A stretch of 55,074 bases of DNA from a virus (IMGVR_UViG_2880361019_000008), one strand, 5' to 3'; positions 11,023-45,723 are shown, numbered from the stretch's first letter. A program made the numbers and translations. Notes: generated by a model from the letters alone, not told the origin.

Positions 11023-11210
11023 ATTCATTACGATATGGGAATTCCCATATCGGGTAAAAACGGTTTGCGGTAAAGCGAGAGTTAAGTAGAATTGCTGCGG
11101 GTGCTTGAGGCTGTCTGCCTCGGGCATGACACCGTAAGGCAGACAGAGAAAAGCCCCAGTTAACATTACGCGTCCTGCAAGACGCCTAACATTAATCTGA
11201 GGCCAATTTC

Positions 11211-11423
11211 ATGCTAGACACATGTAGGTTAGCCTCTTACGCGCCGAAAGGCAAGGAGAAGCAGGCTATGAAGCAGCAAAAGGCGATGTTAATCGCCCTG
11301 ATCGTCATCTGTATTACCGTCATAGTGACGGCACTGGTAACGAGGAAAGACCTCTGCGAGGTACGAATCCGAACCGGCCAGACGGAGGTCGTTGTCTTCA
11401 CAGCTTACGAACCTGAGGAGTAA
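11211..11423 (+). CDS. mok: Mok-like overlapping reading frame (in-frame N-terminal extension of hok)
   Basis: 70-aa ORF sharing frame and stop with the hok-like gene, as in chromosomal mok/hok loci. Confidence 0.45.
   Translation: MLDTCRLASYAPKGKEKQAMKQQKAMLIALIVICITVIVTALVTRKDLCEVRIRTGQTEVVVFTAYEPEE
11268..11423 (+). CDS. hok: Hok/Gef-family type I toxin
   Basis: 51-aa MKQQKAMLIALIVICITVIVTALVTRKDLCEVRIRTGQTEVVVFTAYEPEE resembles Hok; SD AGGAG 9 nt upstream. Confidence 0.8.
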   Translation: MKQQKAMLIALIVICITVIVTALVTRKDLCEVRIRTGQTEVVVFTAYEPEE

Positions 11424-13685: not shown

Positions 13686-13715
13686 TTGACCATATACATT
13701 GTCCGGGGCTATATT
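13686..13715 (+). promoter_or_regulatory. Candidate late promoter (PR' analogue): TTGACC-N18-TATATT
   Basis: -35 and -10 hexamers immediately after Q stop. Confidence 0.35.
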
Positions 13716-13777
13716 CCTCGCGCGTCAGCAAAATCTGGCGTCGGGATTGGAACCCCGGATATTCAACCGCGACAGAC

Positions 13778-13801
13778 ACACGCCGCGAGCGTGTTTTTTA
13801 T
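13778..13801 (+). terminator. Intrinsic terminator (tR' analogue)
   Basis: Hairpin ACACGC-CGCGA-GCGTGT followed by TTTTTT. Confidence 0.55.
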
Positions 13802-13963
13802 TGTCGTAAGCACACGCACATCTGAATAATGGTGGGGCGTATGGGGGAGCTGAAAGGCTCGCCGGTTGGTTGATCCGGTAGTTCCAACCCTGTACGTCTC
13901 ACCACCCAATGATTGGAACCTGACGGTGGTGATAGTTAAATCCATCAACCAGAGGGCGTTATC

Positions 13964-15620: not shown

Positions 15621-15699
15621 CCGTCACTAGCTCATCGGGAAAGAGCGAACAACGCCAGAGGTTGTTGTATGGTGCGGGGTTCGAGTCCCCGGTGACGGT
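15621..15699 (+). tRNA. tRNA-like element, probably degenerate (perfect acceptor and T arms, good D arm, irregular anticodon arm; no encoded CCA)
   Basis: 7-bp acceptor stem CCGTCAC/GTGACGG, T arm CGGGG-TTCGAGT-CCCCG, D stem GCTC/GAGC; anticodon region does not fit the canonical 5-bp stem plus 7-nt loop. Confidence 0.4.
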
Positions 15700-15729
15700 C
15701 CGGTTGCAATAATAAATTCATTTCAGACG

Positions 15730-16129: not shown

Positions 16130-16330
16130 TTTTTTTATTTGCTGTTTATTAAAAACACCACTGCATGGTGAATCCCCCTGTGCGGTGGGGCAATCAGCAA
16201 GAAGGAATATGGGGTAACCGCGGATTCAGGTGCTGATACTGAATTCACCGGGAGGCACCCGGCACCATGCTTTGCCACAAAAGTGTTATTTCTGTTTTTC
16301 TCAAACTATCATCGTTATCCCTTTATTTTC

Positions 16331-16357
16331 GGCTGCGCATGGCGCGGCCTTTTTTTT
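16331..16357 (+). terminator. Intrinsic terminator upstream of nanS-p
   Basis: 8-bp GC-rich stem with 3-nt loop followed by T8. Confidence 0.55.
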
Positions 16358-16443: not shown

Positions 16444-18294
16444 ATGTCGATTAAACATTATGATGTTGTCAGGGCGGCGTCGCCGTCAGACCTTGCGGAA
16501 AAGCTGACACACAAACTGAAAGAGGGCTGGCAGCCATACGGCGGACCGGTTGCCATTACGCCGTACACACTGATGCAGGCGGTGGCTATTGAAGGAGAGC
16601 CACAGGTCGGCCCTTCATCTGAGCCGGATTGGTACTACGTCATCGTACTGGCCGGGCAGTCCAATGCCATGGCTTACGGTGAAGGGCTTCCGCTGCCGGA
16701 TTCATACGATGCTCCGGATCCGTGCATTAAACAGCTGGCGCGCCGCAGTACAGTGACGCCGGGCGGGACTGCCTGCAGATATAACGATATTATTCCGGCC
16801 GACCACTGCCTGCATGATGTGCAGGATATGAGTACGCTGAATCATCCGAAGGCAGACCTGATCAAAGGGCAGTACGGCTGTGTCGGCCAGGGCTTACATA
16901 TTGCCAAAAAACTGCTTCCGTATATCCCGAATAACGCGGGGATCCTGCTGGTACCATGCTGTCGTGGTGGTTCGGCATTCACCCAGGGCGCGGAGGGGAC
17001 ATTCAGCGAGTCCACGGGGGCCAGTCAGGATTCGGCACGCTGGGGGGTGGGCAAGCCGTTATATCAGGATCTGATTTCCCGCACAAAAGCGGCATTGCAG
17101 AAAAATCCCAAAAACGTTCTGCTGGCCGTCTGCTGGATGCAGGGTGAGTTTGACATGAGCGCCGCCACCCACGCACAGCAACCTGCGCTGTTTACAGCCA
17201 TGCTGACACAGTTTCGTGCTGACCTCTCCGTGTTTAACGCGCAGTGCCATGGTGGCAGTGCTGCAGATGTGCCGTGGATTTGTGGTGACACGACGTATTA
17301 CTGGAAAAATACATACGCTACCCAGTACGACACCGTGTACGGCGGGTATAAAAACAGGGAGAGTGAGGGCGTTTATTTTGTGCCCTTCATGACAGACGGT
17401 AACGGCGTCAATACCGCCACTAACGCGCCGGCAGAAGATCCGGATATTCCGGCATCAGGATATTACGGTGCGGCATCGAGAACGAATGGAAACCAGGTAT
17501 CATCAAACCGCCCGACACATTTCAGTTCATGGGCGCGCAGGAGCATTATTCCGGATCGTCTGGCAACCGCTATTCTGAACGCAGCCGGGCGCACCTCCGC
17601 CTTCATCAGTGGTAAGGCACCGGAAATCAAACCCTCGCCCGGCGGCAACACGCCATCGGGTCCGTCTGCAGATACGTCCGTTCGCACAATCTCCCTGCTG
17701 CCGGCAGCCGGAGAGGCTGCTGCGCAGGGCTGGAGCATTAAGGATGGCGGAATTCAGTTGTCAGATGGTGTATTTAAGATCACCAAGCAGAGCAATAAAA
17801 CCTGGTCCCTGACGTATCCGGTGGATGACGCAATTACCCTGCTGACACAGGGCGGCAGACTGACCTGTAAGTTCCGCCTGTCAGGCGCACTGACCAACAA
17901 TCAGTTCGGGCTGGGGATTTATCTGTATACGGATGCTCCCGTTCCTGATGGTGTGGCGATGACGGGTACCGGTAATCCGTTCCTGATGTCGTACTTCACT
18001 CAGACCACTGACGGCAGAGTGAATCTGATGCATCACAGGAAAGCCGGAAACACGAAGCTGGGGGAGTTCGGCGATTACGGTAACGACTGGCAGACGCTGG
18101 AGCTGGTGTTCACCGCCGGCAGTGCCACGGTTACTCCGAAACTGAATGGAGTGGCTGGCCCGGCATTCCAGGTTATAAAAGACAGTCTGACACTGGGACT
18201 GAATGCGCTGACGCTGACGGATGTTACAAAAAATGCAGCGTATGGCGTTGAGATAGAAAGTCTGATGCTGGAGATAAATGCACCGGCAGCATAA
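16444..18294 (+). CDS. nanS-p: Prophage sialate O-acetylesterase NanS-p (N-terminal DUF1737-like region plus SGNH/SASA esterase domain)
   Basis: 616-aa ORF; GQSNA esterase motif; sits between late leader and lysis genes. Confidence 0.85.
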   Translation: MSIKHYDVVRAASPSDLAEKLTHKLKEGWQPYGGPVAITPYTLMQAVAIEGEPQVGPSSEPDWYYVIVLAGQSNAMAYGEGLPLPDSYDAPDPCIKQLARRSTVTPGGTACRYNDIIPADHCLHDVQDMSTLNHPKADLIKGQYGCVGQGLHIAKKLLPYIPNNAGILLVPCCRGGSAFTQGAEGTFSESTGASQDSARWGVGKPLYQDLISRTKAALQKNPKNVLLAVCWMQGEFDMSAATHAQQPALFTAMLTQFRADLSVFNAQCHGGSAADVPWICGDTTYYWKNTYATQYDTVYGGYKNRESEGVYFVPFMTDGNGVNTATNAPAEDPDIPASGYYGAASRTNGNQVSSNRPTHFSSWARRSIIPDRLATAILNAAGRTSAFISGKAPEIKPSPGGNTPSGPSADTSVRTISLLPAAGEAAAQGWSIKDGGIQLSDGVFKITKQSNKTWSLTYPVDDAITLLTQGGRLTCKFRLSGALTNNQFGLGIYLYTDAPVPDGVAMTGTGNPFLMSYFTQTTDGRVNLMHHRKAGNTKLGEFGDYGNDWQTLELVFTAGSATVTPKLNGVAGPAFQVIKDSLTLGLNALTLTDVTKNAAYGVEIESLMLEINAPAA

Positions 18295-18297
18295 TAA

Positions 18298-18590
18298 AAA
18301 AAGCCAGCGACTGATCTGAAAAAGAAGACGCTGGCTAAAAGGCCTTATATGTTTGTAGAGACTTATTTTTCACAGACAGCAATGATGCCTGTCAATATAT
18401 TATCAATATGCGGATTGTTTCAGTTACAGATGCCTTATTAAGGAAAAAAACAGCCAGCACTGACTTTCGGTGGAGAGGTGCTGGCTCAAAAGGATAGATG
18501 TACTTCACATGTTGCTTCTATATGGCAGTACATTTTCTGACAGACAGTGACGGATGTTGTCAAGATATTGTGTCATTTATAACCTGAATC
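18298..18590. repeat. Two imperfect direct copies of a roughly 140-bp element, each starting with an A-run and a stem-loop (18303-18335; 18453-18485)
   Basis: Stems GCCAGCG/CGCTGGC and GCCAGCAC/GTGCTGGC with compensatory differences; both followed by AAAAGG and GACAGACAG-containing tracts. Confidence 0.4.
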
Positions 18591-18741
18591 AGGGGAGGCC
18601 GGAATGTTATCTGGCATTTTTAGCAGAGCCTGAATGCCATGATCACGGCTCCCGGCGTTGGCCGTCAGTGGGTGACACTGGCGGCTTTTTTGTTTTTCTT
18701 TACTTTCATTTTCTGTCGGCGGTGACGGAGACATACATCAG

Positions 18742-18948
18742 ATGGAAAAAATCACAACAGGTGTGTCATACACCACGTCAGCGGTGGGGACGGGATACTG
18801 GTTACTGCAGCTGCTGGACAAAGTCTCTCCGTCCCAGTGGGTGGCAATAGGTGTGCTGGGGAGTCTGCTGTTTGGCCTGCTGACGTATCTGACAAACCTT
18901 TATTTCAAGATTAAAGAAGATAAGCGTAAGGCTGCGAGAGGTGAATAA
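18742..18948 (+). CDS. S: Holin (class II, Stx-phage S-like)
   Basis: 68-aa [25 protein letters not shown]... with two TM segments; directly upstream of endolysin. Confidence 0.85.
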
Positions 18949-30655: not shown

Positions 30656-31030
30656 ATGGCAAAAGATCTGAAAACACTGGCGCTGGCCAGACTGTCGGGG
30701 TTCCGTCATAAAACGGTGAAGGTGCCGGAATGGGGAAATGTCAGCGTGGTGCTGCGGGAGCCTTCGGCAGAGGCCTGGTATCTGTGGCAGGAAGTGCTCA
30801 ATGGTGATGGAGAGGATGACGATACCCTGTCGGTGGTGGCGAAAACCCGCCGTAACCTGGAAGCGGATGTGACGCTGTTCTGCGATGTCCTGTGTGATAC
30901 GGACCTGCAACGGGTGTTCACTCCGGACGACCGTGAGCAGGTGCTGGCCGTCTATGGTCCGGTACATGCCCGGTTGCTGCGTCAGGCACTGGAACTGATC
31001 GCTGATGCAGAGTCGGCCAGAAAAAAGTAG
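30656..31030 (+). CDS. G: Tail assembly chaperone (lambda G analogue)
   Basis: 124-aa ORF ending at slippery heptamer A_AAA_AAG. Confidence 0.7.
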   Translation: MAKDLKTLALARLSGFRHKTVKVPEWGNVSVVLREPSAEAWYLWQEVLNGDGEDDDTLSVVAKTRRNLEADVTLFCDVLCDTDLQRVFTPDDREQVLAVYGPVHARLLRQALELIADAESARKK

Positions 31031-44715: not shown

Positions 44716-45723
44716 AGACCAGCATCACGGAAACCCGCAATGAAATCACACAGACGGTCAGTAAAACACTGGAGAACCAGAGCGCCACCATACAGCAGAT
44801 ACAGCGCGTGCAGAAGGACACAAATGATGACCTGGCTGCGCTGTACATGCTGAAGGTTCAAAAAACGAAAGACGGCATTCCCTATGTGGCCGGGATTGGT
44901 GCAGGGATTGAGGATACTGATGGTCAGCCACTGAGCAACATACTGCTGCTGGCTGACCGTATCGCGATGATAAATCCGGAGAGCAGCAACAGCACGCCGT
45001 TATTTGTGGCGCAGGGGAATCAGCTGTTCATGAACGACGTGTTCCTGAAACGACTGTTTGCGGTGAGCATCACGTCATCCGGCAATCCTCCGGCATTTTC
45101 CCTGACGCCGGACGGGCGACTGACGGCGAAAAATGCGGATATCAGTGGCAGTGTGAATGCGAACTCAGGGACGCTCAACAACGTCACGATTAATGAGAAC
45201 TGTCAGATTAAGGGGAAACTGTCAGCCAACCAGATTGAAGGCGATATAGTCAAAACAGTGGGTAAGGCTTTTCCGCGGGACTCCCGGGCACCGGAGCGGT
45301 GGCCATCAGGGACCATTACCGTCAGGGTTTATGACGATCAGCCGTTTGACCGGCAGATTGTTATTCCGGCGGTGGCATTCAGTGGCGCTAAGCATGAGAG
45401 AGAGAGCATACTGATATTTACTCCTCATGCCGTCTGATAGTGCGGAAAAACGGTGCTGAAATTTATAACCGTACCGCGCTGGATAATACGCTGATTTACA
45501 GTGGCGTTATTGATATGCCTGCCGGTTCACGGTCACATGACGCTGGAGTTTTCGGTATCAGCATGGCTGGTGAATAACTGGTATCCCACAGCAAGTATCA
45601 GCGATTTGCTGGTTGTGGTGATGAAGAAAGCCACCGCAGGCATCAGTATCAGCTGAATTTTATAACCCATATACGGGCGCCAGAAATGGCGCCTTTTTTA
45701 TTGCAGAAAAGCGAGAGGTAATT

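Follow-up and report, generated by a model that had tools for sequence, protein, structure and literature searches.

The window analysed here, a stretch of 55,074 nucleotides, comprises the late region of a lambdoid prophage. Upstream of the element under study lie a tRNA-Leu(CAG) gene, a match to the small RNA (sRNA) STnc100 and the sialate O-acetylesterase gene nanS-p, and downstream of it the lysis cassette starts with a class II holin gene, which is followed by the genes for endolysin and Rz (Table 1). The spacer between nanS-p and the holin gene measures 447 bp, and its first 300 bp are occupied by the repeated element, which consists of two diverged tandem units with a period of 150 bp, unit 1 (18295-18444) and unit 2 (18445-18594).

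Table 1. Features of the nanS-p to holin region and of its two repeat units (window coordinates; the strand is that on which the feature is read).
Feature	Position	Strand	Remarks
tRNA-Leu(CAG)	15621-15701	+	
STnc100 match	16137-16303	+	just before nanS-p
nanS-p	16444-18294	+	SASA-family sialate O-acetylesterase; convergent with pasA
Unit 1	18295-18444	-	PasA/PasC-family paralogue, as judged by comparison; supplies the 3' part of the 236-nt minor form of PasA
Unit 1 A-run	18296-18302	+	
Unit 1 stem	18302-18309 and 18329-18336	+	AGCCAGCG pairs with CGCTGGCT
Unit 1 terminator hairpin	18302-18336	-	8-bp stem AGCCAGCG/CGCUGGCU; U-tract 18301-18296
Unit 1 AAAAGG	18337-18342	+	
Unit 1 upstream block	18361-18395	-	TTGACA 18395->18390, 17 nt, TGAAAA, 6 nt, C at 18360
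Unit 1 tract	18371-18379	+	CACAGACAG
Unit 1-specific stretch			CUCUACAAACAUAUAAGGCC; distinguishes unit 1 from unit 2 as a probe target
pasA	18444-18528	-	major 85-nt sRNA; 5' end 18528, 3' end 18444
Unit 2 A-run	18444-18450	+	
Unit 2 stem	18452-18460 and 18478-18486	+	AGCCAGCAC pairs with GTGCTGGCT
PasA terminator hairpin	18452-18486	-	9-bp stem AGCCAGCAC/GUGCUGGCU, then G and U7 at 18451-18444
PasA seed	18476-18485	-	GCCAGCACCU; 5' arm of the terminator stem; published in PMC8550237, Fig. S5
Unit 2 CAAAAGG	18487-18493	+	
CCUUUUG tract	18487-18493	-	directly 5' of the PasA stem; unit 1 counterpart at 18337-18342
Block upstream of the mature PasA 5' end	18529-18594	-	nearly invariant in PasA, PasC and type-D loci
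Unit 2 tract	18539-18547	+	GACAGACAG
Class II (S21-type) holin	18742-18948	+	first gene of the lysis cassette

The first-pass annotation had described two copies of roughly 140 bp. The duplication itself was recovered, with the period corrected to 150 bp: 105 of 175 aligned columns (60%) are identical between the units, and their local alignment score of 32 was reached by none of 500 shuffles (11.9 +/- 2.3). The same applied to the tails of the units once the hairpins had been removed (20.5 versus 10.8 +/- 2.1; 0 of 500 shuffles). On alignment grounds, the duplication is real and old, not a product of chance. The succession of an A-run, a stem-loop, AAAAGG and a downstream tract, noted previously for each copy, was found in both units. 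The hairpins are far more stable than shuffled sequence on both strands (z-scores of -3.2 to -4.5), with folding energies of -17.1 (unit 1) and -20.8 kcal/mol (unit 2) for the + strand and of -17.4 (unit 1; -16.6 in a second folding) and -16.3 kcal/mol (unit 2) for the minus strand. Their stems have the outer 7 bp in common (AGCCAGC/GCTGGCT), and at the inner end a G:C pair in one unit is replaced by A:T and C:G in the other, with pairing retained.

The two hairpins have a clear strand polarity. Read on the minus strand, each GC-rich stem of 8-9 bp is followed by a U-tract, which constitutes a canonical intrinsic terminator. The U-tract follows the stems on this strand alone, the corresponding place on the + strand being taken by AAAAGG or CAAAAGG, and neither hairpin has a U-run 3' of its stem on the + strand, as a terminator of the late operon would. 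Both hairpins are annotated as minus-strand terminators in the curated record of phage 434 (OL657226), which is 99.6% identical here. A consensus terminator scan of the window, which allowed loops of 3-8 nt, found neither hairpin because their loops exceed 8 nt; these measure 13-17 nt and contain internal pairs. The AAAAGG of the first-pass annotation corresponds on the minus strand to a CCUUUU tract located just 5' of the stem. Its stem-proximal U run is constant in all variants, while the flanks vary (CCUUUUG/CCUUCUG, CCUUUUA, CCGUUUUA, CCUUCUU). In enterobacterial sRNAs, the Hfq-binding module consists of a GC-rich terminator hairpin with a 3' U-tail and, on the 5' side of the hairpin, a U-rich tract. 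Each unit carries the complete set on its minus strand; however, the terminator loops are long here, and the PasA seed lies within the terminator stem. By analogy with this module, the CCUUUU tract probably represents its internal U-rich part.

A further, strong intrinsic terminator, on the + strand, was located at 18660-18696, within the Q-antiterminated late operon; its 11-bp stem runs into T6GT4, and the start codon of the holin gene lies 45 nt downstream. It is likewise annotated in OL657226, just before the holin gene, and is partly conserved in Stx2 phage 86. [quoted passage not shown] Small open reading frames of the spacer on either strand (30-53 aa) were dropped from consideration, as they cross the hairpins or the + strand terminator and are without support.

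PasA and PasC are Hfq-dependent sRNAs of E2348/69 that are encoded between a sialic acid esterase gene and the holin-lysozyme operon (PMC8550237; bioRxiv 10.64898/2026.05.13.724894). In Table S6 of PMC8550237, PasA is placed on the minus strand of NC_011601 from 743499 to 743415 (major form, 85 nt), with a minor form ending at 743264 (236 nt) and the gene orientation '> < >'; these ends were estimated from read coverage and are accurate to a few nucleotides. Using a conversion anchored on the esterase stop codons (window = record - 724971), the three positions correspond to 18528, 18444 and 18293 of the window. PasA is therefore the minus strand of unit 2, with its 3' end at the last U after the hairpin, and the minor 236-nt isoform (18528->18293) ends at the U-tract of the unit 1 hairpin. 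The spacer of E2348/69 prophage PP2, also of 447 bp, differs from that of the window by 2 mismatches in 461 aligned bases, both outside pasA and none within 18444-18528. The published location, between a SASA-family esterase and a class II holin and on the opposite strand ('> < >'), matches that in the window. In addition, the PasA northern probe GCCAGCACTGACTTTCGGTGGAGAG equals the + strand of 18454-18478, within the unit 2 hairpin, and the PasA fragment printed in Fig. S5 of PMC8550237 as 5'-...AAGUACAUCUAUCCUUUGA GCCAGCACCU CUCCACCGAAAGUCAGUGCU... equals the minus strand of 18452-18510. By sequence correspondence, then, the locus is the known pasA sRNA locus of lambdoid prophages, and unit 2 is PasA itself, encoded on the minus strand. 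The evidence on transcripts and on Hfq is transferred from E2348/69 (RNA-seq, northern blotting, RIL-seq) and from strain Sakai (CRAC). In the former, PasA was less abundant in an hfq mutant (log2 change -2.8), and its sizes were confirmed by northern blots (PMC8550237).

PasA has many mRNA partners, among them the 3' end of nanS-p, where RIL-seq in E2348/69 placed the target site CUGAUGCUGGA (PMC8550237). This motif is found in the window at 18262-18272 (+), near the nanS-p stop codon. The overlap of the PasA seed with its terminator has been called unusual (bioRxiv 10.64898/2026.05.13.724894). Elsewhere in the window, a perfect 10-nt complement to the seed occurs at 30939-30948 (+).

The mature 5' end of PasA has been attributed to cleavage of a longer transcript (bioRxiv 10.64898/2026.05.13.724894). 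The nearly invariant block upstream of it contains, on the minus strand, TTGACA (18563->18558), 17 nt that include CUGUCUGUC (on the other strand, the 'GACAGACAG' tract), TCAGAA and 6 nt leading to 18528. This block can be considered a promoter-like candidate with a poor -10 element (TCAGAA). The weak promoter-like sites returned by a consensus scan (9 of 12 matches) were no more frequent than in shuffled sequence. Two other assignments were rejected: the TTGT..TTGT at 18557-18571 as a CII box, for its spacing of N7 instead of N6, and, ahead of the PasA 5' end, a promoter of the sigma-E type, which would lack a GGAACTT-like -35 element.

Rfam 15 gave no gathering-level match in 18295-18594, and an E-value scan of 18200-18800 returned chance-level matches of at most 19.7 bits, compared with gathering thresholds of at least 39. 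Neither Rfam 15 nor the genome records mark pasA, save for the terminators in the phage 434 record; therefore, in Stx1-type, phage 434-type and related prophages, the element has the appearance of an unexplained structured repeat of the late operon.

Other RNA genes accompany the locus. The STnc100 match upstream of nanS-p (Rfam RF02076, 98.5 bits, with an intrinsic terminator at 16331-16349) occupies the position of PasD2 in E2348/69, where PasD2 and PasA flank the esterase gene in the published layout, PasD2 itself being related to STnc100 (bioRxiv 10.64898/2026.05.13.724894). Its identification as PasD2 was rejected, as just 68 of 172 positions agree in register; therefore, the copy in the window is of the STnc100 type, a relative of PasD. 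STnc100/PasD is a companion prophage sRNA of the same module as pasA, but it is read from the opposite strand, its sequence family is unrelated, and its position is outside the repeated element. Further RNA genes of the window are DicF (4534-4585, -), the sok antitoxin RNA (11099-11273, +) and an isrK / C4 antisense RNA / c4-a1b1 cluster (13709-13909, +).

For comparison, 80 IMG/VR loci anchored on the C-terminus of nanS-p were sampled, together with phage and E. coli records, and these yielded 26 distinct hairpin-unit sequences. They fall into four stem types: that of unit 1 (AGCCAGCG/CGCUGGCU), that of PasA (AGCCAGCAC/GUGCUGGCU), that of PasC (AGCCAGCG(C/U)CC/GGACGCUGGCU, + strand) and a type D (AGCCAGUAC/GUACUGGCU). 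The PasC probe CGCTGGCTAAAACGGGTAGATGTAC matches a single-unit variant of the spacer, which is thereby identified as PasC. Among 66 usable IMG/VR loci, 44 carried unit 1 and PasA, 12 PasC only, 6 type D only, and 4 were interrupted by insertion sequences (IS). Unit 1 thus occurred with PasA only, and never with PasC or type D. No relative was found in the nanS-p to holin spacers of 933W/Stx2-86-type phages. Stx1-type, phage 434-type and related prophages are present in approximately 13% of complete E. coli genomes, with roughly 3,300 E. coli copies.

Pairs were counted in an alignment in which 90 related loci are represented by 15 distinct variants. Of the cells in the 11-pair helix, 90.3% are paired, and 5 of its 11 pairs change on both sides; the outer six pairs are invariant across the 15 variants, and the inner pairs covary, from CG to UA at columns 55:77 and from GC to AU at columns 56:76. 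The covariation score of 0.211 was not reached by any of 500 shuffles (0.123 +/- 0.016), and sliding the partners gave at most 0.116. The earlier observation that both arms of the stem change together so that pairing is preserved thus extends from the two units to their homologues, and the selection on structure proposed from it is borne out by a covariation above all 500 shuffles and the slid controls. The strand on which this structure matters is indicated by the PasC variants, in which columns 57:75 form U.G, a pair in the minus-strand RNA alone that becomes C.A on the + strand. Beyond the terminator hairpins, no conserved structure was found on either strand. A + strand hairpin of unit 2 at 18492-18538 keeps several pairs via G.U, yet it was discarded since the hairpin as a whole disappears from variants of the H-19B type (z = +0.34) and from those of type D (z = +0.09), and a minus-strand 5' hairpin of PasA was rejected as it is not conserved. 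The selected structure is therefore best understood as the sRNA terminator and not as an element of the late mRNA.

IS elements have repeatedly entered this spacer. In at least six independent loci (L006 at about 1700-2960; L011, L022, L046 and L082 downstream of nanS-p; L090 at 1131, which is Sakai Sp4), IS629/IS1203 and other IS were located within a hairpin or unit or directly beside one. The spacer between the esterase and holin genes has the look of an insertion hot spot, where pas genes are split or destroyed again and again. A remnant consisting of the 3' end of nanS-p and unit 1 alone (90% identity) was also found on plasmid NZ_CP027391 (L005, 3001-3157), where it lies among IS elements on plasmids of about 95 kb and adjoins uilS. 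Its stem contains non-Watson-Crick positions and has lost pairs, which is consistent with decay outside a prophage.

Among themselves, the PasA, PasC and type-D units share 80-86% identity, compared with 59-61% between them and unit 1; the hairpin head of unit 1 resembles PasC most (74%). A covariance model from which unit 1 was left out (R1; PasA, PasC and type D alone) finds unit 1 at 18378->18295 (-) with 30.6 bits and an E-value of about 3.5e-4 for 55 kb searched on both strands, the next-best match in the window scoring 15.5 bits. All two-unit loci searched with the same model yielded unit 1 (25-28 bits in the other loci), and its score comes mostly from the terminator and the UUUUAGCCAGCG block. 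Like the other members of the family, unit 1 ends in a hairpin, here with an 8-bp stem, and a U-tract at its 3' end. The upstream layout is shared as well: on the minus strand of both units, TTGACA is followed by 17 nt including CUGUCUGU, T(C/G)A(G/A)AA, 6 nt and a C. In unit 2 this final C is the mapped 5' end of PasA (18528), and in unit 1 it is 18360. These comparisons argue for unit 1 as an older paralogue of the pasA/pasC module that has since diverged, and against an unrelated backup terminator. A 2026 survey based on BLAST reported a distance of at least 22 kb between pasA copies and no tandem duplicates among them (bioRxiv 10.64898/2026.05.13.724894), and the paralogy of unit 1 therefore seems to have gone unnoticed; the papers on PasA and PasC treat the region solely as the 3' extension of the minor isoform, whereas here it is read as a diverged tandem copy. 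As in OmrA/OmrB and PrrF1/PrrF2, the copies are adjacent, diverged and in the same orientation, with a common 3' terminator region and a differing body. However, the units here are far more diverged (60%), and what they present is homology and two terminators, with promoters as candidates only.

Two additional sequences related to these units were observed. At 18092-18100 (+), nanS-p contains a perfect 9-nt complement, AGACGCTGG, to GCCAGCGUCU, the seed-equivalent of unit 1. At 45631-45701 (+), in the spacer between two + strand open reading frames, a weak match to the PasA/PasC model (15.5 bits, E 0.27) was found, which agrees with the 5' part of the PasA variant of H-19B type at about 24 of its first 30 bases and is followed by a hairpin of its own, GGGCGCCAGAAATGGCGCC, and T6. 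This is possibly a further sRNA-like element.

Binding of Hfq has been recorded at both terminators. In EHEC Sakai, Hfq-CRAC yielded the clusters EcOnc51 (in Sp12) and EcOnc52 (in Sp4) (Tree et al. 2014, PMC4104026), which were listed there as uncharacterised and were later cited together as PasA 'homologues' by Pearl Mizrahi et al. (PMC8550237). Mapping them to the window assigned one cluster to each unit, a division worked out here: EcOnc51 corresponds to 18500->18424, the unit 2 terminator, and EcOnc52 to 18361->18284, in unit 1, both on the strand opposite the esterase gene. The boundary of EcOnc52 at 18361 lies 1 nt from the C of unit 1 at 18360. In the RIL-seq data of E2348/69, the unit 1 region is listed separately as pasA.E2348C_0688.IGR, on the minus strand and always as RNA2, with 5 interactions and about 12,800 other chimeric fragments (PMC8550237). 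The RNA2 fragments cover 743267-743294 (-), or 18296-18323 in the window, where the 3' half of the unit 1 terminator lies.

These data raise the question of whether unit 1 is an sRNA gene in its own right, PasC-like, with a 5' end at about 18360 and the seed-equivalent GCCAGCGUCU, which would make the locus an array of two sRNAs. The separate listing of EcOnc52 and EcOnc51, the separate RIL-seq entry with unit 1 always as RNA2, and the shared TTGACA-17-T(C/G)A(G/A)AA-6-C layout with 18360 adjoining the EcOnc52 boundary are all in favour of such a gene, as are a second promoter-like site in the consensus scan (CTGAAA-18-TATATT, 18423->18394, -), the closeness of the hairpin head to PasC and a hairpin and U-tract that are intact in all prophage copies examined, the plasmid remnant having decayed. 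However, the 236-nt form is detected with the unit 2 northern probe, so read-through from pasA can explain the Hfq-bound 3' ends at unit 1, and CRAC clusters mark Hfq sites, not transcript ends. The -10 element (TGAAAA) is also weak, and the body of unit 1 is barely similar to PasA or PasC. Sakai Sp4, in which IS629 separates unit 1 from the rest of the spacer, was set aside as proof of independent transcription because Sp4 and Sp12 have the same unit 1 sequence and reads cannot be assigned to one copy. An independent gene is thus possible, albeit doubtful, and it is with the same reserve that we suggest that EcOnc52 and pasA.E2348C_0688.IGR could represent a separate Hfq-dependent sRNA of unit 1 (18295 to about 18395, -) instead of a read-through tail. 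At the other extreme, unit 1 might be a functionless relic, a decaying pseudogene that stems from recombination of PasA-type with PasC-type prophages and stops read-through with its hairpin by coincidence. Its 60% identity to unit 2 with an sRNA body that can hardly be aligned, the single-unit PasC and type-D loci that manage without it, and the IS insertions in or around it without obvious consequence would fit a relic. Yet every prophage copy retains an intact stem and U-tract, in contrast to the plasmid remnant with its lost pairs, an Hfq-bound RNA ending at the unit 1 terminator was recovered in two studies, and unit 1 was present with few substitutions in 44 of 44 uninterrupted IMG/VR PasA loci, which makes a relic unlikely.

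The first-pass annotation had suggested that the element could affect the processing or stability of the late transcript. In such a model, the hairpins would act in the + strand RNA, taking part in the processing or 3' stabilisation of the nanS-p message or modulating the expression of the holin. In + strand RNA the hairpins are indeed equally stable (-17.1 and -20.8 kcal/mol), the first one begins 8 nt past the nanS-p stop codon, and the single hairpin of PasC and type-D loci likewise abuts the stop codon; moreover, PasA could pair with the late transcript in antisense fashion, given their full complementarity. However, the + side is without a U-tract, the U.G pairs of the PasC variants become C.A, and the remaining helices predicted on that strand are not conserved, while the experimental 3' ends and the Hfq binding are on the minus strand. 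Phages of the 933W/Stx2-86 type, which have nanS-p with a different holin, are wholly without the element, and a secondary effect on the late mRNA found no support in the present analysis. A role in the processing or stability of the late transcript is thus not supported, the U-tracts, the U.G pairs and the published 3' ends all belonging to the minus strand, and we consider it highly improbable.

The element is, with high confidence, the pasA sRNA locus on the minus strand, with unit 1 as a diverged copy that contributes a second terminator. According to what has been published for the near-identical locus, a minus-strand transcript would arise in the spacer between nanS-p and the holin gene, antisense in orientation to the late operon, and the mature 85-nt PasA would end at the Rho-independent terminator of unit 2. 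A minor fraction is expected, as published, to read through and to stop 150 nt further on at the unit 1 hairpin, giving the 236-nt isoform, and the RNA ending at each terminator would be bound by Hfq. From general knowledge of sRNAs, Hfq is likely to bind to the terminator hairpin, the U-tail and the CCUUUU tract as one module. In PasA, the seed that pairs with mRNAs, including the 3' end of nanS-p, would at the same time be the 5' arm of the terminator stem, GCCAGCACCU. Comparative sequence analysis suggests that the pairing of the stems is conserved because the hairpin must form for termination and Hfq binding, a need that may in turn account for the compensatory changes. The two serial terminators may also keep antisense transcription out of nanS-p.

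The locus, its strand, both 3' ends and the Hfq dependence are already known from work published in 2014, 2021 and 2026. What appears to be new is the recognition of unit 1 as a tandem, diverged copy of the PasA/PasC family, in a group of genes that has been explicitly contrasted with tandem sRNA cases (bioRxiv 10.64898/2026.05.13.724894). The paralogy of unit 1 is relevant to the duplication and divergence of prophage sRNAs and to the present tally of Hfq-binding sRNAs in EHEC and EPEC, which might be one too low. If the sRNA of unit 1 is real, PasA-type prophages would carry a tandem array of two sRNAs, against the published view that pas genes never occur in tandem.
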